DNA from: a virus
Taxonomy: Duplodnaviria > Heunggongvirae > Uroviricota > Caudoviricetes
IMG/VR virus record: IMGVR_UViG_2541047891_000004
Span: 1 to 40,492 of that record
Length of the DNA stretch: 40,492 bases
Direction: 5' to 3' (one strand)
Part shown: positions 2,795-23,379 of the stretch, piece after piece
Position numbering within the stretch: position 1 is the first letter of the stretch
Layout: the number at the start of each line of letters is the position of its first letter
Translations under genes and position numbers: made by a program
Notes under the pieces: generated by a model
The model's database searches: none
Seen by the model: only the letters and a program-made list of their open reading frames with translations
Told to the model about the DNA's origin: nothing

Positions 2795-5438
2795 TTGCAT
2801 ATTCCTTAGCCCAGCGGGGCAGTGATAACGTCTTAATAGCTGGCCATTCATCGGTATTGAGGCAGTCAGCCAGGGTTCGCAGATTGCGGTGATATTCCAG
2901 CTGACCTGCCAGTTTTGCTTCTTCGCCCATCATGAAAATTTCAACCGGATAACGTCCGCATTCAATAGTTGTGCTGGCGACCAGAAAAACGAAAGTTGGC
3001 TGCACTCCAAACTGTGCTTCATAACCGTCACTGTAGAATGCATCCTGAACGTGATAGCGGTAGTCGTAATAAGCGGTTTTGAATCGTTGAATATCCGCCG
3101 TAGTTTTCACGTCCATGATCCAGTGAAATTCAGGGATAATTTTGTCCGGACGGCACCGACACAAAATTCCTGTTTCAGGATCTTCCCAGTAAATTGATGA
3201 TTCAGCGTGTCCGGCGCTTTCAACAAGCCATTGCCCCAGCGGCAAAGCCATAACGCTTTGATACATGAGCTCAATTTTCCGGCTTTCTTCCGCAGTGATA
3301 ACCGTTTTTCCTGTGCTTGCGCATTTCATAAGAAACGCTTTCTCTTCTTCTTTTCCGGCGTTTGTACGGCGGTTAAATTCAGGTGCTACGATAAAGCGGT
3401 TACTGAATTCTTCCGGTTCAAGTACCCGGCAGTGGAAAGCGGTTCCTAAATCGAGCGTTTTTGTCTTTGTGGTGTCCACGGGGGCATTTTTACGCCACAA
3501 ATACAGTGCCGGAGTATCAGCAATGTCATCGAGCTGAGACTTACTGACACCGGGACCCGCGTGGTAATTCTCATTCGAAATTCCGTAATAAATACCTGGC
3601 TCTATGTCTTCTACGATTACGGGAGCTGCGACTTCGCCAGTTTCATCACTGCAATCGCGATGCGGATCGCTGCCAGCATTCTCATTGTGCGGATGTTCAG
3701 CGCCTTCCATTTCCACCGGATCATTTTCCTTGGCTTCAACCTGATTCTCTTCATCGAATGTTTCCTGGTATGTTGCGTCGCCCATCACCGCACCACAGTC
3801 AGGGCAGTTATCCCCGCCAGTCTGACCGCAGGCATTGCAGACTATTTCCGGTTCCTGTTGCACTACTGGCTCAGGTTGTTTCACATCCGGGCTGGTTTTT
3901 TCCGTTTCTGGCTGGTTCTGGTACACAGAATCGCGAGTCTGGATCCCCTTAACCCATTTCGGATCGTTCGGGTCGCTAATTCCGTCAACAAATTCACCAC
4001 GTGATGCAGCAAGCAATTTATCGGCATCGACAGGATTTTTTGATGGAATGTTTTTCCGGGCTTCATGGAGTTCTGCCCGCAGTTCCTGATATTTCGCATC
4101 AACAGAATTTACCTGTGACTGAGCATCCAGCGGCTGCGTGTCCTGATGATGTTCAGTTGCGTCCGGTTCCATTGTTTCAGCCTCTCCCTGTTCATCTGCC
4201 GTTGTTCCAGATGGTTGCGGTTTTTCTTCATCATCCTGTTTTCCTTCTTCTGTTACTCGCTGCGGCATCGGGGCCGAGGAGCGACCGCAGGCAATATCCA
4301 CGATTTCCGGATCAGGGTTGGCATGATCGGTTTCAGTCAGTACTTTGTTCAGATATTCAGTGACGTGTGCGGGGATGACCTCGATCCCAATTGGTGCTTC
4401 TTTCACGGACGCAACCACGATGGCGCGGGAATAATCCAGCCCGCCAGGCATGGTGATGAATTTGTCGCGGAAAACAGAAAAGGGTGGTTTATTTTCAGCG
4501 ATAATTTCCTCAATGCGTTTAGCGTGTGCCGGATGAAGGTTATAGATGTCCACGTCCATTGAACGGGCCAGTACGCCAGTGGCTACATCGCGCGCCAGTG
4601 ACGTCAGATCGTGGACGAAACCTTCGCCGCGATCGGTGAGGTTCCCGCCGCCAGCATTAGCACCGGAAGCCGTGCGAGTGATGCGTGAAACACGATTCCC
4701 TTTTCGCCATTCTTTTGTCAGAAGACCGCGATCAATGTGTTCGGTATCCAGCCAGGCTGAAATGAAATTCTTAAATTCATAGGGCTGATGTTTTTTCGTG
4801 ATAGAGAACACTGCCTTAATTGCATCAGTCAGGCGGAGCAGGGCGGCATTATCCAGAGTTGTCGGTTCTGCCATGCTGCGTATGGCCAACAGCAGATTCT
4901 GGACATAGCTGTTTTCCTGATCCATCTCAAGAGCAGTAATGTGTTCGCGTTGTTCACGGGTGGCATGATGCAGGTATTTCCGATTCCCGGCCGCATACGT
5001 AAAAATGTGCAGAAGACGCTGTGTGAACCGCAAAGTGGATACAGAAACTTCGCAATCCTGGCAATCCCCGTGAGCGTCTGCCAGTGTGTTTTCTTCCTGC
5101 CCTCCCGTCAGTTCTTCGGTTTCCTGAGCATTCTCCTGATGGTGAACGTCGTCTGGCGCTGCTCCCGATTTTAGTTCCCAGGTCATGGAGTCTTTGCTGA
5201 GTTGATAGCGTTCACTCCAGGTAAAATCGATCTCACCTTCAGGGGGCAGGTCATTAACGACAGGAAAATTCGTGGCAACAGCTTTAAAATAGCTGCTCAG
5301 TTTTTTACCTGACTTAACGATCAGGTAGTCCAGAGTGGCACAGGTCGATTCAAAATCGTCGCTTGCCCACAGGACGACGTCAGGTTCACCGGATGATTTT
5401 TTCGCTTTCCGTAACAGGAAGAGTGGTTTTGTGCTCAT
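2787..5438 (-). CDS. recE: Exodeoxyribonuclease VIII RecE (883 aa)
   Basis: [15 protein letters not shown]-terminus and C-terminal exonuclease region recognised as RecE; recE-recT pair intact. Confidence 0.9.
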
Positions 5439-17431: not shown

Positions 17432-17721
17432 TGGTGGACTTACGTAAAGCGGCGCGGGGGCAGATGTGCACCGTCAGAATTCCTGGCTACTGCAATCACG
17501 ATCCGGAAACGTCTGTGCTGGCGCATTACCGACTGGCGGGAACGTGCGGAACAGCGATAAAGCCACACGATATGCAGGCAGCGATTGCCTGTAGCTCGTG
17601 CCACGATTTAATCGACGGGCGGGTAAAAACCAGCGATTACACCAAAGAAGAATTACGCCTGATGCATGCAGAAGGTGTTTTTCGCACACAAGAAATCTGG
17701 AGAAAGGAGGGATATTTATGA
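17431..17721 (+). CDS. ybcO: YbcO-like putative zinc-binding nuclease (DUF1364-like, 96 aa)
   Basis: Cys/His-rich CTVRIPGYCNH...CSSCHD; same size and position as lambdoid YbcO. Confidence 0.7.
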   Translation: MVDLRKAARGQMCTVRIPGYCNHDPETSVLAHYRLAGTCGTAIKPHDMQAAIACSSCHDLIDGRVKTSDYTKEELRLMHAEGVFRTQEIWRKEGYL

Positions 17722-18254
17722 TTTACCCAACGAATACAGGAAAAAGCGGAGAACACCTTCGTCTCACCACGCTGGAAAGTGTCTGGATTCAGGGAAAACT
17801 ACGTATGTGGGGGCGCTGGTCGTATATTGGCGGCGGCAGGTCAGGGAATATGTTTAACCAGTTGCTGGCATCCCAAAAAATGACAAAAACAGCCATCAAT
17901 GAAGCCCTGCGCAGATTGAAAAAAGCGGGAATTGATAAACCAGAGTTGGAAGCATTTTTGCGTGAGATGATCGAAGGAAAGCAAAAAAGCTGGTTAACTC
18001 ACTGCACTGATGCAGAGGCACTAAAAATTGATAGTGTTATAGGTGAAGTTCTGGCGGATCATCCAGGACTACTAAATGTCCTGAGTCAGCGTTATGTGGG
18101 GCGAGGGATGAGTAAGAGAAGGATGGCAGAGTTATTAAACGAACAGTACCCAGAGTGGGCGTTGATTACATGCCGACGTCGTGTTGATCAGTGGTTGCGT
18201 GTTGCTGAGTTCATTTTGTATTCACCTATGAGAGAAGCGTTCGATTATGCTTAA
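17718..18254 (+). CDS. Putative late-gene antiterminator Q-like protein (178 aa)
   Basis: Start at ATG 17718 with GGAGG RBS; RMWGRW segment resembles Q-family proteins; last gene before terminator, tRNAs and lysis genes. Confidence 0.55.
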   Translation: MIYPTNTGKSGEHLRLTTLESVWIQGKLRMWGRWSYIGGGRSGNMFNQLLASQKMTKTAINEALRRLKKAGIDKPELEAFLREMIEGKQKSWLTHCTDAEALKIDSVIGEVLADHPGLLNVLSQRYVGRGMSKRRMAELLNEQYPEWALITCRRRVDQWLRVAEFILYSPMREAFDYA

Positions 18255-18616: not shown

Positions 18617-18692
<76 letters not shown>

Positions 18693-18695
18693 TAT

Positions 18696-18770
<75 letters not shown>

Positions 18771-19132
18771 GCATTTGAAACAAGCCTTATTGTATTGCGG
18801 CACTGGCGTATTTTTTTATTACGTGGGAGCAGGTTGTTTTGAAAAAGCATTCTGTTCTCTGGCTATGATTTGAGGCCGGGTGTAGCCTCAGTGCTGATTT
18901 TTTACGGCAGCAGAATGGTGCATTATCGGTGGAGATTTTGTATTTCCTGGCAGGGTCGGTGATGCATCATTCTGGTGTTGTAAAAGCACCGCAGAGGCGT
19001 TCCTCAGGGCGAGGGTGGTTTAAAGAGTCGGTTTAGCGGGAAACCACAGTATCCATACAGCACGGAATACTTCGGGAGGCACCCGACGCCTCGGTTTAAT
19101 AACAATTAAAAAATTCATCCCTTGCATTGACC

Positions 19133-19158
19133 AACCGCCATATCTGGCGGTTTTTTTT
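19133..19158 (+). terminator. Intrinsic terminator in the Q-to-lysis noncoding interval
   Basis: CCGCCA-TATC-TGGCGG hairpin followed by T8. Confidence 0.65.
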
Positions 19159-19485
19159 ATTCCTTTCTCAGGACAAAAAAAGACACGAGCATCCAGGAAT
19201 ACTCGTGGGACAACGTCCTTTGGATAGCAATTTGCGAGAGGGTGAAAAGTAGCGCGGTCGTCGGATTAAGACCGCGGGACAAAGTCCATGAAGAATAATA
19301 AGTATTGGCCCCCTTCCGGGGACATGTTCATACTACTAAGCTTCAGAAGTGGTTTAAATCCTCAAATTAACCTTAATTTCCGATAAGTCTTATTTCATTT
19401 CTTTGCGCCACATCTGGTGCGCATCAAATAACGCCACGCAAAGGGCATCTGCGGATGCCGGTGCTTTTGACGGGGTGTTTTTTAC

Positions 19486-19507
19486 GGGCCGCTGGTGGCC
19501 CTTTTTT
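19486..19507 (+). terminator. Intrinsic terminator immediately upstream of the holin gene
   Basis: GGGCC-GCTGGT-GGCCC hairpin followed by TTTTTTATTT; holin RBS begins 7 nt later. Confidence 0.65.
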
Positions 19508-19526
19508 ATTTACAGGAGAAAAAAGT

Positions 19527-19919
19527 ATGTCTGAACCCTTATCCGGTTCCGGCACGGCTGTGGCGCTCGGCGGGGCGACGGTATTCGGGCTGTTTACCGG
19601 AACGGATTTCGGGATTGTGTTTGGTGCGTTCGCTGGGGCGTTATTTGTGGCAACGATGCCGCAGGCGCTTTCAGCCTGGCGTGTGGCGGCGCATTTTCTG
19701 GTGTCGTTCATTATCGGCGTGCTGGGCGCAGAGGTTCTGGCATCCTGGCTGGTAAAGCATACAGGGTTTGACGGTGCGCCTGTCGACGCACTGTGTGCAG
19801 TGCTGGTGTCAGTGGTGTCGGTGAAGATTCTCTCGTTCATCCACCAGCAGGATATTGCATCACTGGTGTCCGGCCTGTTCTCCCGTCTGCGGGGTGGAGG
19901 AGGCGGCAATGTTAAGTAA
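19527..19919 (+). CDS. Putative holin / lysis membrane protein (130 aa)
   Basis: AGGAG RBS; Gly-rich protein with several hydrophobic helices; first gene of the lysis cassette. Confidence 0.55.
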   Translation: MSEPLSGSGTAVALGGATVFGLFTGTDFGIVFGAFAGALFVATMPQALSAWRVAAHFLVSFIIGVLGAEVLASWLVKHTGFDGAPVDALCAVLVSVVSVKILSFIHQQDIASLVSGLFSRLRGGGGGNVK

Positions 19920-20187
19920 CATTCCCGGATTGCTGAATGTAGCGTTATGCACGGTTATCGTGCTGACGCTCTTTTTTTATCGTCGCCGTGATTCCAGACA
20001 TAAACCGCTGATGTCATGGCTGGCCTGGCTGCTGATGCTGCTGTATGCCTTTGCGCCCCTCAGCTATCTGTGTGGTCGCCCGTTAGCAACGGGCTGGCTG
20101 GAAGTGCTTTTTAACCTGCTGTTCTGCGTGCTGGTGATACGCGCACGTGGGAACGTCACAAAAATCTTTGTATTACGAAGGCGCTGA
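19909..20187 (+). CDS. Putative holin-associated membrane protein (92 aa)
   Basis: Three hydrophobic segments; overlaps upstream gene and ends 1 nt before the endolysin start. Confidence 0.5.
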   Translation: MLSNIPGLLNVALCTVIVLTLFFYRRRDSRHKPLMSWLAWLLMLLYAFAPLSYLCGRPLATGWLEVLFNLLFCVLVIRARGNVTKIFVLRRR

Positions 20188-20188
20188 T

Positions 20189-20734
20189 ATGAAGTCGAAA
20201 GATGAAATTTTTGACGAAGTTCTGGGAAAAGAGGGCGGTTACGTCAATCACCCGGATGATAAAGGCGGACCGACAAAATGGGGTATTACGGAAAAAGTCG
20301 CCCGCGCTCACGGATATCAGGGCGATATGCGTGACCTGACACGCGAACAGGCGCTGGAAATCCTTGAGGCGGATTACTGGTTCGGACCACGCTTTGATCA
20401 GGTGGCCGCATTATCCTCTGATATTGCTGCAGAGTTGTGTGATACCGGTGTGAATATGGGGCCGTCCGTAGCATCGAAAATGCTCCAACGCTGGCTGAAC
20501 GTTTTCAACCTGCAAGGCAAATTGTTCCCGGATATGGACGCAGACGGGCGTATCGGCCCCCGCACGATTAATGCACTACGGACTTATCTGCAAAAACGTG
20601 GCAAAGACGGCGAACTGGTGATGCTGAAGGCGCTGAATTGCACGCAGGGCGACCGCTATCTGGAGCTGGCAGAAAAACGCGAGGCCAACGAGTCGTTTGT
20701 CTACGGCTGGATGAAAGAGCGCGTAGCAGTTTAA
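20189..20734 (+). CDS. Endolysin, GH108 lysozyme-like domain with C-terminal peptidoglycan-binding domain (181 aa)
   Basis: GH108 signature GKEGGYVNHPDDKGGPTKWGIT near the N-terminus. Confidence 0.8.
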   Translation: MKSKDEIFDEVLGKEGGYVNHPDDKGGPTKWGITEKVARAHGYQGDMRDLTREQALEILEADYWFGPRFDQVAALSSDIAAELCDTGVNMGPSVASKMLQRWLNVFNLQGKLFPDMDADGRIGPRTINALRTYLQKRGKDGELVMLKALNCTQGDRYLELAEKREANESFVYGWMKERVAV

Positions 20735-20838
20735 AAACTGACGCTGAAGTGCTGAACACCCTCAACTCACGCAGGCTCTTTTCTGGGGTTACGATGAGTG
20801 AAAGTAAGGGGTACAGCATCAAGCATCAGATAGCAAAA

Positions 20839-20868
20839 ACCCCGGCTGCTGGAACAGTCCGGGGTTTT
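20839..20868 (+). terminator. Intrinsic terminator after the endolysin
   Basis: CCCCGG-13 nt loop-CCGGGG followed by TTTTT. Confidence 0.6.
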
Positions 20869-20960
20869 TAGTTTTCACGTCAAAGAGGAAATTGTGAGTA
20901 GTGAGTACGGAGAAAATCCTCGTGGGAAAGTATAAAAGATTCTTTTTGAGGTTGTCCATT

Positions 20961-21074
20961 ATGAAAGGTATTGAAGTGGAAACTCCCGCGAGCCTTGATT
21001 TGACAAGGGCTGCGGCCTTTGCAATTCGCCTTGTGGCGGTCGCTGTTCTGATTTGGGCTGTGCGTTGGTGGTGA
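20961..21074 (+). CDS. Possible small membrane peptide (37 aa)
   Basis: MKGIEVETPASLDLTRAAAFAIRLVAVAVLIWAVRWW; stop 1 nt before the lipoprotein start. Confidence 0.3.
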   Translation: MKGIEVETPASLDLTRAAAFAIRLVAVAVLIWAVRWW

Positions 21075-21075
21075 T

Positions 21076-21258
21076 ATGAGCCGAAAACACTGGACACACA
21101 GAATGCCGCGAGCGGCGGCAAAATGGGCACTGGTAGCGATACTGGTGCCTTTTTTATTGGTGGGGTGCGTCAGCCTGGATAAGGCGCGCCAGCTTTTCGA
21201 TACAGCTTCTCAGGTCTGCGAAATTGTTGATAGTGTCCGGCGGTGTATGCAGAACTGA
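21076..21258 (+). CDS. Small lipoprotein (60 aa), possible lysis accessory
   Basis: Positively charged N-region, hydrophobic core WALVAILVPFLLVG, lipobox LVGC; mature part about 30 aa with 3 Cys. Confidence 0.5.
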   Translation: MSRKHWTHRMPRAAAKWALVAILVPFLLVGCVSLDKARQLFDTASQVCEIVDSVRRCMQN

Positions 21259-21431
21259 TCGCCTGTAAGAGCAGAATATTTTGCTGAAAAATGAAGGATG
21301 CGCCAGCGTCCGGAAAGCATGAAATTCTGCTGCATGTGCCAATTTTATCTTATTCATTCTAAATCTTGCCGAATCAAGATGAAATTTGAACAACTGCCCA
21401 GCGGCAAGGGGCATTAAAACAGGAGAAAATT

Positions 21432-21539
21432 ATGTGGAAACCTACAGGTGACAAGTTAATCACCGCGTTGATTGACGGCAAGCCACAATACTTACGCATT
21501 GAAATGAGTGGTCAGCATGCTCGTTTGATTCGTGAGTAA
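21432..21539 (+). CDS. Possible small protein (35 aa)
   Basis: AGGAGA RBS 7 nt upstream; hairpin GCAGCCC/GGGCTGC follows. Confidence 0.3.
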   Translation: MWKPTGDKLITALIDGKPQYLRIEMSGQHARLIRE

Positions 21540-21662: not shown

Positions 21663-22454
21663 ATGAGCGAGAAATTGAAGATCGTCTATCGCCCTTTACA
21701 AGAACTGTCTCCGTATGCACACAACGCCAGGACACACAGCACTGAGCAGGTGGCACAACTGGTAGAAAGCATTAAGCAATTCGGCTGGACTAATCCGGTG
21801 CTGATTGATGAAAAGGGCGAAATTATTGCTGGTCACGGTCGCGTTATGGCGGCTGAAGTGCTCAAAATGGATTCCATTCCGGTCATCGTTCTGTCTGGTT
21901 TGATGGATGATCAGAAAAAGGCGTACCGCCTGGCAGATAATCGCCTGCCGATGAATGCTGGCTGGGATGAAGATCTGTTACGGATGGAGCTGTCGGACCT
22001 AATCAATGCTGATTTTGATGTCTCCCTGACAGGCTTCAGCCCGACAGAAATTGATGAACTGTTGACGGATGTTTTGCCCGGTACAGAAAATGAGGAGGAG
22101 CCGTATACGACGAAAATTGATACACCTGTTTATGAGCCGTCAGGCGATAAACCGGATATCGGCGAACTGTACGACGATACGAAAACTCAGGAGCTGGTCA
22201 GCCGGATACGTTCGGCGTCCCTTGATCCTGATATCGAAAAATTCCTCCTGTGTGCGGCAGAACGCCACACAGTGTTTAATTTCAGCAGAATTGCGGACTA
22301 TTACGCTCACGCCCCCGCTGAAATTCAGTGTTTTTTCGAGGAGTCGGCACTGGTGATCATTGATTATCAGCAGGCTATTGAAAATGGATTTGTCCGGATG
22401 ACGCAGCGCATGGTGGAGATCATGCATGGTGGTGAGGAGGAGGAATATGCGTGA
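21663..22454 (+). CDS. ParB-like nuclease domain protein (263 aa)
   Basis: N-terminal ParB/Srx signature including IIAGHGR; C-terminal 150 aa unassigned. Confidence 0.7.
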   Translation: MSEKLKIVYRPLQELSPYAHNARTHSTEQVAQLVESIKQFGWTNPVLIDEKGEIIAGHGRVMAAEVLKMDSIPVIVLSGLMDDQKKAYRLADNRLPMNAGWDEDLLRMELSDLINADFDVSLTGFSPTEIDELLTDVLPGTENEEEPYTTKIDTPVYEPSGDKPDIGELYDDTKTQELVSRIRSASLDPDIEKFLLCAAERHTVFNFSRIADYYAHAPAEIQCFFEESALVIIDYQQAIENGFVRMTQRMVEIMHGGEEEEYA

Positions 22455-23379
22455 TGATTTTTGCGCCTTTATTCTGACTCACGGGCGACCGGACAAAGTT
22501 CTGACTTACCGGACGTTGCGTCGTGCTGGCTATACCGGGAAAATTTTTATCGTTGTTGATGATGAAGATAAGACACGGCATCAGTACATGGCTGAATTTG
22601 GTGAACAGGTGCTGGTGTTTTCCAAAGCCGATATCGCCAGTCGTTTTGACGAAGCCGATAATTTCTGTGACCGCCGCTCAATTTTTTACGCCCGTAATGC
22701 CTGTTTCGACCTGGCAAAACTGGTCGGGTGTAAATACTTCATTCAGCTCGATGATGATTATCACGAGTTTCAGTTTCGGGTGGATCGCAACTATGACCAG
22801 GCCTATTTTCCGATAAGGAAACTGGATGCGATCCTTTCTGAAATGCTGGCGTATTACGAATCAATACCTGCTCTTTCCATCGCTATGTCGCAGGGCGGGG
22901 ATTTTCTTGGTGACAATGGCGGCCATGCTTCATGGGTGAAACGCAAGGCAATGAACAGCTTTATCTGTTCGGTCGAGCGACCGTTCTCATTCATGGGGCG
23001 CATTAACGAGGATGTGAATACGTACACGAATCTCGGTCGCCGTGGTGAATTGTTTATGACGATCGGTGCTGTCCAGTTAGGGCAGAAACAGACGCAGAAA
23101 AACAGCGGCGGAATGACCGAGCTGTATCTGGATTCCGGAACCTACGTTAAAAGTTTTTACTCCGTCATGTATGCGCCGTCGTGCGTAAAAATCTCACTGA
23201 TGGGTGCCAGCCATAAACGCATTCACCATCAGGTCACCTGGAACAACGCTGCAGTAAAAATCCTTCACGAAAAATACAGGAAGAAGACACCCTGCATATC
23301 AATGGGGGTGACAAATGATTCCGTATTCGAAAGTCGAGTCTCTGGCAGCGTGCCGGATGACTGCACAACAAATAGCTGA
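22447..23379 (+). CDS. GT-A fold (family 2-like) glycosyltransferase-like protein, apparently soluble (310 aa)
   Basis: AFILTHGRPD and KIFIVVDDED N-terminal strands, then FYARNACFDLAKLVGCKYFIQLDDDY (ARN...DxD); GAGGAGGAGG RBS; 8-nt overlap with ParB-like gene. Confidence 0.55.
   Translation: MRDDFCAFILTHGRPDKVLTYRTLRRAGYTGKIFIVVDDEDKTRHQYMAEFGEQVLVFSKADIASRFDEADNFCDRRSIFYARNACFDLAKLVGCKYFIQLDDDYHEFQFRVDRNYDQAYFPIRKLDAILSEMLAYYESIPALSIAMSQGGDFLGDNGGHASWVKRKAMNSFICSVERPFSFMGRINEDVNTYTNLGRRGELFMTIGAVQLGQKQTQKNSGGMTELYLDSGTYVKSFYSVMYAPSCVKISLMGASHKRIHHQVTWNNAAVKILHEKYRKKTPCISMGVTNDSVFESRVSGSVPDDCTTNS

Follow-up and report, generated by a model that had tools for sequence, protein, structure and literature searches.

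A conserved orphan lipoprotein in the spanin slot of an Escherichia coli prophage is a candidate for a different kind of outer membrane breach

The lysis cassette and the two small genes behind it

The stretch analyzed here (the window) covers positions 1–40,492 of IMG/VR record IMGVR_UViG_2541047891_000004, 40,492 nucleotides (nt) in length, and matches the reverse complement of NZ_LR778147.1 3314732–3355223 (E. coli SC418) with full identity. It represents a lambdoid prophage at the Rac site (ttcA/intR), with ttcA, intR, xisR, recET, kilR, and ydaSTUV on one flank. Behind the endolysin gene of its lysis cassette lie two small open reading frames (ORFs), which encode a 37-amino acid (aa) membrane peptide, here called pep37, and a 60-aa prolipoprotein, lipo60. 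Our subject is lipo60, which sits where otherwise similar cassettes carry the spanin genes Rz and Rz1.

The cassette is located downstream of a Q-type antiterminator gene (17598–18254; DUF1133/Phage_antitermQ in Pfam). It opens with a putative holin, a Gly-rich protein of 130 aa (19527–19919, plus strand; PF16931 Phage_holin_8, E = 2.8e-22; phrog_198, holin) with a Gly content of 15% and three or more hydrophobic stretches. The next gene shares 11 nt with the first and encodes a second putative holin or antiholin of 92 aa with three hydrophobic stretches (19909–20187, plus strand; PF05449 Phage_holin_3_7, E = 1.7e-21; phrog_217, holin). Both assignments come from annotation only, and the two holin-family proteins are probably a holin and an antiholin or co-holin. 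The third gene encodes a 181-aa endolysin (20189–20734, plus strand; PF05838 Glyco_hydro_108, E = 1.7e-26; PF09374 PG_binding_3, E = 1.2e-25; phrog_315, endolysin), and the EGGY motif is visible in its translation. All four Pfam domains scored above their gathering thresholds, and the genes are in tandem and co-oriented; this part of the cassette is ordinary.

A terminator-like hairpin (CCCCGGCTG...CAGTCCGGGG) followed by TTTTT is located between the endolysin and the small genes (about 20840–20869, plus strand); it was read from the sequence and found by consensus scan, and it is 90% conserved in P27-type loci such as L023. The pep37 gene (20961–21074, plus strand; phrog_4493, E = 7e-16) is annotated in the source genome by the Prokaryotic Genome Annotation Pipeline (PGAP; WP_001305859.1), and lipo60 (21076–21258, plus strand; phrog_7528, E = 5.5e-37 over residues 1–60) is not. 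A sequence-only reading that preceded this work had described these five ORFs and the terminator, and each was recovered in the same place with the same properties.

The same reading described a cassette without a recognizable Rz/Rz1 pair, and reanalysis of the window agreed. A Pfam scan of the small ORFs gave no match at E ≤ 0.1, including to PF03245, PF06085, and PF02402, and two types of Rz and one of Rz1 used as tblastn queries gave no match in the window. When all start codons in six frames of the 40.5 kb were scanned for a lipobox, lipo60 was the only credible lipoprotein, and the one other match was antisense to ydaU. Every outer membrane spanin (o-spanin) or unimolecular spanin (u-spanin) requires a lipobox, so this result counts against a hidden spanin in the window. 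One of the two holins was also considered as a hidden inner membrane spanin (i-spanin) and rejected because the same holins occur together with Rz/Rz1; the presence of lipo60 beside a different holin in Lelliottia further rules this out.

Searches of the small ORFs against Pfam, NCBIfam, and PHROGs returned only PHROGs of unknown function (7528, 4493, 1115, and 4906) and no curated family. The ratio of nonsynonymous to synonymous substitutions (dN/dS) was 0.19 for lipo60 overall (56 unique nucleotide sequences), 0.14 for its mature part, and 0.24 for the n-region of its signal peptide, where the proportion of synonymous differences was normal. For pep37 the ratio was 0.09, compared with 0.23 for the holins and 0.07–0.10 for the endolysins (0.07 for the endolysin in the window). 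The view that the small ORFs are more than chance is upheld by their conservation and by these values, which indicate that pep37 and lipo60 are real genes belonging to conserved families under purifying selection.

The first 30 residues of the lipo60 precursor form a signal peptide, in which the n-region is long and cationic, and the lipobox LVGC includes Cys31. Its mature part consists of 30 residues (Cys31–Asn60), 29 of them after the acylated Cys, and includes the invariant Cys48 and Cys57. Throughout the family, the L[VA]GC lipobox is invariant and position +2 is V, A, or T but never Asp. In the n-region, H5, H8, R9, and P11 are invariant and W6 and T7 nearly so, which might hint, speculatively, at some importance of the precursor or of the signal peptide once cleaved. 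The only hydrophobic stretch of the protein is the signal peptide (residues 12–37). AlphaFold 2 predicted the mature domain to be one long helix. The mature part is amphipathic, with a hydrophobic moment of 0.38 (p = 0.027 versus shuffles) that reaches 0.56 over the best 18 residues, and S-A-L-A-V-V-V-M occupy the heptad a/d positions of the helix.

Distribution of lipo60 and its exchange with Rz/Rz1

The lipo60 family (phrog_7528) comprises 160 clusters at 90% identity, all from Enterobacteriaceae. A profile hidden Markov model search of 1.84 billion representatives retrieved only 23 clusters at 50% identity, which form two subfamilies of small enterobacterial lipoproteins, and gave no link to any known family. 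Of 5426 complete E. coli genomes, 352 (about 6%) carry the gene, with up to seven copies each, and it also occurs in Salmonella, Citrobacter, Cronobacter, Yersinia, and Lelliottia; only three loci were found by a scan of GTDB species representatives. One database entry, PP818812.1 ("Actinobacillus phage vB_Apl-pPE4"), shows 90% DNA identity to the lysis region and encodes a 92%-identical lipo60; its Actinobacillus host assignment is doubtful given that the family is otherwise restricted to Enterobacteriaceae.

Genomic contexts were compared for approximately 105 lipo60 loci drawn from NCBI assemblies, IMG/VR, phiP27, phiSTEC1575-Stx2k, Salmonella, Citrobacter, and Lelliottia; all counts from this set are approximate. 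In every locus, lipo60 directly follows the endolysin gene or lies in the module after it, and the endolysins belong to two unrelated classes, M15 peptidases and GH108 enzymes. The commonest architecture (about 41 loci) is holin_8, holin_3_7, and an M15 endolysin with lipo60 14 nt behind it. About 28 loci have the two holins, a GH108 endolysin, a terminator, two small genes (pep48 and pep44), and lipo60, and about 28 more, of the type seen in the window, have the two holins, a GH108 or M15 endolysin, pep37, and lipo60. The gap between endolysin and lipo60 in the 41 loci is 14–15 nt, with no membrane protein gene between them, and in Lelliottia, where a different 117-aa holin accompanies a GH108 endolysin, lipo60 overlaps the 3' end of the endolysin gene. 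This spacing argues that lipo60 is co-transcribed late with the endolysin. Moreover, lipo60 is found upstream of at least four unrelated packaging modules (Terminase_4/TerL, Nu1/GpA, DUF1441/GpA, and the ParB-TAGT-terminase arrangement of the window), which indicates that it travels with the endolysin and not with a virion or receptor type.

In the loci with two extra small genes (L023, 3661–3995, and about 28 similar loci), a 48-aa membrane peptide and a 44-aa peptide precede lipo60. The N terminus of pep48 (phrog_1115) is homologous to that of pep37, and pep44 (phrog_4906) has a single transmembrane domain (TMD) and a dN/dS of 0.08. The pep44 gene is not in the window.

The pep37 peptide consists of MKGIEVETPASLDLTR and a C-terminal TMD ending in RWW, which is its single hydrophobic stretch, and leaves 16 residues or fewer outside the membrane. 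Its conserved start is the ATG that gives 37 aa; a 57-aa version from a GTG start at 20901 was therefore rejected as the main product. The family contains 38 protein clusters, three of which were each seen on some 500 to 1000 contigs or more. When the contexts of two of the most abundant members were looked up, pep37 was located directly upstream of a genuine Rz (PF03245) with embedded Rz1 (PF06085) in L007–L022, at the same TGAnATG junction (pep37 stop at locus position 4114, Rz start at 4116). Eight of these loci (L007–L014) are enterohemorrhagic E. coli-type Shiga toxin (Stx) prophages with an S-type holin and R lysozyme; the others (L015–L022) have holin_8 and holin_3_7 as in the window together with an M15 endolysin, so that the same cassette holds pep37-Rz/Rz1 in place of lipo60. 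The possibility that pep37 is a truncated Rz was rejected, as it is a complete, conserved ORF that precedes an intact Rz. Its co-occurrence with full-length Rz/Rz1 means that it is not an Rz substitute, and its C-terminal TMD and lack of a periplasmic domain mean that it is not an i-spanin. By these comparisons, pep37 is an independent small membrane protein of wide distribution, accompanied by Rz/Rz1 in some cassettes and by lipo60 in others. The stop/start overlap of its gene with the next one possibly serves translational coupling, and an accessory or regulatory role is possible.

The junction between pep37 and lipo60 in the window coincides with the edge of two blocks of homology. In blastn comparisons, positions 20922–21079 matched the pep37 module of Rz-type cassettes (83%) and the match ended at the start codon of Rz/lipo60, and positions 21071–21329 matched the lipo60 module of P27-type loci (93–94%). 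Because the blocks meet at the start codon, the pair in the window is a recombination joint on the TGATATG stop/start overlap and did not co-evolve as a unit, and the alignments indicate that Rz/Rz1 was swapped for lipo60 to the nucleotide by recombination. The sequence-only reading had suggested that the 37-aa and 60-aa products together might be a spanin equivalent, a lysis regulator, or a membrane toxin module. The lipoprotein half of the first suggestion stands, as lipo60 is a reasonable candidate in the spanin slot, but the idea of a functional pair is not supported: pep37 precedes genuine Rz/Rz1 in thousands of contigs, lipo60 is most often found without pep37 and 14 nt behind the endolysin, and the two genes are joined on a start codon.

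No Rz/Rz1 was found in the 4–5 kb flanks of the approximately 105 lipo60 loci. A second sample, collected around holin_8 instead of lipo60, yielded 75 complete cassettes, and lipo60 was intact in 68 of them. One cassette had lipo60 with a stop codon, and another (L197) had a lambda-like Rz/Rz1 together with a lipo60 copy lacking its first 14 codons. Decayed lipo60 copies were also found in Stx phages with an S-R-pep37-Rz/Rz1 arrangement, namely GER2 (L126, 3489–3680) and the Stx2 prophage of the O104:H4 outbreak strain (L127, 3001–3186). Both copies lie downstream of Rz/Rz1 and carry three in-frame stops or a frameshift. Each relic has an ais-like phosphatase gene on one side and the terminase gene on the other, and a pep37-type GGTGGTGATATGA junction is retained in front of it.

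A consensus scan detected no plus-strand promoter between the endolysin and lipo60, where promoter-like sites were at the level of shuffled sequence; one weak minus-strand match was found at the small genes. The scan also revealed a second terminator-like hairpin, inside lipo60 itself (21125–21159, plus strand), with the structure GGGCACTGGTA-GCGA-TACTGGTGCCT followed by TTTTTTATT. It has a 10–11 bp stem and a GCGA loop and spans codons 17–28 of the signal peptide. A 61-nt stretch at this site folds with −21.4 kcal/mol, modestly better than shuffles (z = −2.15). Synonymous sites at the hairpin are frozen in the 56 unique sequences, including a rare ATA codon, and its 35 nt are 91–94% conserved in the pseudogenes (GER2, O104:H4, and L197) and in the Lelliottia homolog, the rest of which is 61–74% identical. 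This pattern indicates that the element is conserved at the nucleotide level beyond coding needs, and the constraint would account in part for how extremely the ALVAILVPFLL segment is conserved. The element resembles a functional terminator or attenuator, and it could act as a terminator ahead of the packaging genes or attenuate expression of the lipoprotein.

The remaining genes around the cassette follow the order Q, tRNA-Thr, tRNA-Gly, lysis cassette, a ParB-like gene with a glycosyltransferase gene, terminase, and morphogenesis genes. The tRNA-Thr(TGT) and tRNA-Gly(TCC) genes occupy 18617–18770, and the approximately 750 bp up to the first holin gene (18770–19526) are non-coding, with several terminator-like hairpins (19133–19152 and 19486–19501). 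In phiP27 and Rac-SA53, this slot is the site of stx, epl, or eal toxin genes; the window has no toxin gene there. Other small toxin genes of the prophage are hokD, ralR, and kilR. Downstream of lipo60, a 35-aa ORF (21432–21539, plus strand; phrog_8025, E = 1e-22) with a strong Shine-Dalgarno sequence (aggagaaaattATG) is unannotated by PGAP and recurs downstream of lipo60 in many loci. It is followed, directly upstream of the terminase, by genes for a ParB/Srx-like protein (PF02195) and a TET-associated glycosyltransferase (TAGT; PF20691, E = 1.3e-35), the latter labeled hypothetical by PGAP (21663–23379, plus strand); these two genes may form a DNA modification module.

Possible roles of lipo60

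Disruption of the outer membrane is the least understood step of phage lysis. Around 15% of the phages of Gram-negative hosts reportedly have no identifiable spanin, and to our knowledge the disruptin is the only alternative to spanins that has been described. The position, family relationships, and predicted properties of lipo60 mark it as a conserved orphan lipoprotein in the spanin slot and a candidate for breaching the outer membrane by a different route. We put the probability that it is a late outer membrane lipoprotein that functionally replaces Rz/Rz1 at about 0.5. The arguments for this are its position, either immediately after the endolysin or exchanged with Rz/Rz1 at one nucleotide, its mutual exclusivity with Rz/Rz1, the decay of the gene where Rz/Rz1 is present, its independence of virion type, the purifying selection on it with its invariant cysteines, and its standing as the only lipobox ORF in the window. 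In addition, Kongari et al. (PMC6139136) independently selected the phiP27 homolog as an o-spanin.

If lipo60 replaces Rz/Rz1, it would be transcribed only from the Q-modified late transcript, as suggested by the absence of a plus-strand promoter and the terminators before and inside the gene. The invariant lipobox and the V, A, or T at +2 in place of Asp suggest that the precursor would be processed by Sec, Lgt, and LspA and sorted to the outer membrane by the Lol pathway. The 29-residue amphipathic, heptad-patterned helix with its two invariant cysteines may then form disulfide-linked oligomers, and once the endolysin has removed the peptidoglycan, lipo60 would destabilize the outer membrane, either directly or via a host factor. 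How it would do so is a more tentative matter. The protein may be a stand-alone outer membrane-disrupting lipoprotein, which would make it a third kind of effector after the spanins and the disruptin, and tentatively it would act from the inner leaflet of that membrane, without a partner in the inner membrane. The active form would possibly be an oligomer of helices joined by disulfides, or a host factor (PldA or Lpp, for example) might mediate the effect. Should the stand-alone model be correct, lipo60 would serve the P27-type Stx2e, Stx2k, and related prophages in approximately 6% of E. coli genomes.

Several observations weigh against a replacement of Rz/Rz1 by lipo60. Pfam, NCBIfam, and the profile search of 1.84 billion proteins gave no tie to a characterized lysis protein, and a search of the literature on P27-type lysis and the lipo60 family found no experimental work. 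The helix was modeled with only moderate confidence (pLDDT 67), and the net charge of the mature part is 0, so it is not a cationic peptide of the disruptin type. The argument from decay beside Rz/Rz1 comes from three loci, two of which are closely related, and the window is possibly not the whole prophage, so a distant spanin is conceivable. Furthermore, five of the 75 holin_8 cassettes have neither lipo60 nor Rz/Rz1, which indicates that spanin-less versions are tolerated, at least as prophages. In Rac-SA53 (L005, 5315–6455) and SerU-LTIIb (L006, 5219–6368), heat-labile enterotoxin II (LT-II) genes occupy the pep37-lipo60 slot of a holin_8/holin_3_7/GH108 cassette, and neither lipo60 nor Rz/Rz1 was present in the region examined.

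These last observations would fit a different interpretation, in which lipo60 is a moron without a lysis function (for superinfection exclusion, Cor/Llp-like receptor masking, or Bor-like fitness) and P27-type cassettes have no outer membrane disruptor. The slot also takes other cargo, including bor and the ais-like phosphatase gene (toxin or bor cargo was seen in Rac-SA53, SerU-LTIIb, and L136). Lambda spanin mutants lyse when divalent cations are absent, and a moron would be consistent with the hairpin that separates the endolysin from the small genes in the window and with the lack of homology to lysis proteins. We regard this as the main rival, though a less likely one, with a probability of perhaps one in four. 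The gene has no plus-strand promoter of its own upstream, it begins 14–15 nt after the endolysin stop codon in 41 loci and overlaps the endolysin in Lelliottia, and it is tied to the endolysin and not to a tail or receptor-binding module across at least four packaging modules. It was also never intact beside Rz/Rz1 and was decayed in the three loci that have both. If lipo60 were a moron after all, a large group of naturally spanin-less lambdoid phages would have been identified.

A role as a lysis regulator is improbable. Such a protein could inhibit the endolysin or set its timing, or its cleaved signal peptide could act in the inner membrane; conservation of the n-region at the protein level, which is unusual for a generic export signal, would then be accounted for. 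Small membrane proteins that modulate lysis are known, such as Lcc6 of LambdaSo (bioRxiv 10.1101/2024.01.23.576932). However, a specific inhibitor would hardly be expected to accompany both M15 and GH108 endolysins, whose folds are unrelated, the most constrained part of the protein is the mature domain (dN/dS 0.14) and not the signal peptide, and mutual exclusivity with Rz/Rz1 would not be expected of a regulator.

We consider it more improbable still that pep37, or pep44 elsewhere, is the i-spanin and lipo60 the o-spanin of a minimal two-component system. A membrane protein gene followed by a lipoprotein gene with a stop/start overlap does mimic the overlapped or separated spanin architectures, lipo60 has cysteines as Rz1 does, and phiP27 is listed in SpaninDB as a separated two-component spanin. 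Yet phiP27 has no pep37 and the 64-aa ORF named as its i-spanin looks spurious (see below), pep37 accompanies full-length Rz/Rz1 in thousands of contigs, and its C-terminal TMD leaves at most 16 residues outside the membrane. At least 41 loci have no membrane protein gene between the endolysin and lipo60, and the two products together would offer 45 periplasmic residues or fewer, against a SpaninDB minimum of 62.

Finally, a membrane toxin or toxin-antitoxin-like module unrelated to lysis, which the sequence-only reading had also offered and which would suit two small, hydrophobic products in a prophage with hokD, ralR, and kilR, is highly implausible, since there is no antisense or own promoter other than the one weak minus-strand match, the genes lie in the late operon in a fixed position that is always linked to the endolysin, and pep37 and lipo60 are separable genes with different distributions.

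The carriers of lipo60 include Stx2e and Stx2k phages of the P27 type, whose toxin release needs lysis. The family also offers a natural swap in which the same cassette is joined at the same nucleotide to either Rz/Rz1 or lipo60.

Comparison with known lysis systems

A homolog of lipo60 has already been catalogued as a predicted o-spanin, apparently with the wrong partner. In SpaninDB (Kongari et al. 2018, PMC6139136), phiP27 appears among the "separated" two-component spanins; it has the shortest periplasmic length in the database (32 + 30 = 62 residues, in a range of 62–300, with lambda at about 170), and both components are singleton families. The phiP27 o-spanin (20706..20861) is 88% identical to lipo60 and shares its lipobox, its 30-residue mature part, and its position after holin_8, holin_3_7, and the endolysin. 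In contrast to the window, phiP27 has no pep37, and its SpaninDB partner is a 64-aa i-spanin (20348..20542; L002 4265–4459). This ORF starts with TTG and lies on the strand opposite a conserved gene of 90 aa (phrog_36812). It has no PHROG match, and it is missing both from the window and from nearly all other loci of the lipo60 family. We therefore rejected it as likely spurious. The SpaninDB pairing for phiP27 is probably wrong, which would leave the lipo60 family as orphan lipoproteins, and the shortest "two-component spanin" in the database seems to be a mis-paired entry.

By the features used in SpaninDB to recognize an o-spanin (lipobox, outer membrane sorting residues, and position in the lysis cassette), lipo60 qualifies. 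No adjacent, embedding, or overlapping gene encodes a type II inner membrane protein with the N-terminal TMD and periplasmic domain expected of an i-spanin, and lipo60 has no homology to the spanin families PF03245 (Phage_lysis) or PF06085 (Rz1). The available periplasmic length is 29 residues plus at most 16 from pep37 (45 or fewer), and 29 alone in most family members. Without a conserved inner membrane partner and with so short a reach, lipo60 is not a classical spanin. Its likeness to lambda Rz/Rz1 lies in the shared slot, identical to the nucleotide, and in probable late expression with the holin and endolysin; Rz1, too, is a lipoprotein of similar size, at about 60 aa, which goes to the outer membrane, as predicted for lipo60, and has cysteines of functional importance. 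The two differ in that lipo60 has no sequence similarity to Rz/Rz1 and lacks an i-spanin gene, whether embedded or adjacent. Its mature domain is predicted to be helical whereas Rz1 is proline-rich, and its length falls far short of what would span the periplasm.

The disruptin gp28 of phage phiKT, proposed to break the outer membrane in a phage that lacks spanins (bioRxiv 10.1101/515445), resembles lipo60 as a short amphipathic helix that does not bridge the periplasm. It is cationic, however, and has neither a signal sequence nor a lipid anchor, whereas the mature part of lipo60 has net charge 0 and a predicted lipid anchor, so lipo60 does not belong with the disruptins. The u-spanin gp11 of phage T1, like lipo60, comes from one gene located after the endolysin and carries a lipoprotein signal at its N terminus, but it also has a TMD at the C terminus, and its periplasmic domain of about 90 residues links both membranes. 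As lipo60 ends 29 residues past the lipidated Cys with no C-terminal TMD, a u-spanin mechanism is excluded.

Colicin lysis proteins, or bacteriocin release proteins, are small lipoproteins with a mature part of about 28–33 residues that permeabilize the envelope. The signal peptide of some has a role of its own, and the gene lies behind a terminator in colicin operons. In size and lipid anchoring, lipo60 resembles these proteins, although it has no PF02402 (Lysis_col) match at E ≤ 0.1. The colicin lysis proteins are not Cys-rich and are encoded in SOS-regulated colicin operons, whereas lipo60 belongs to a phage holin-endolysin cassette. Lambda Bor, phi80 Cor, and T5 Llp are also small phage outer membrane lipoproteins encoded near lysis or tail regions. 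These are either expressed on their own or encoded in linkage with receptor-binding genes, whereas lipo60 is co-oriented with the cassette, most often begins 14 nt after the endolysin, and is found independently of tail type.

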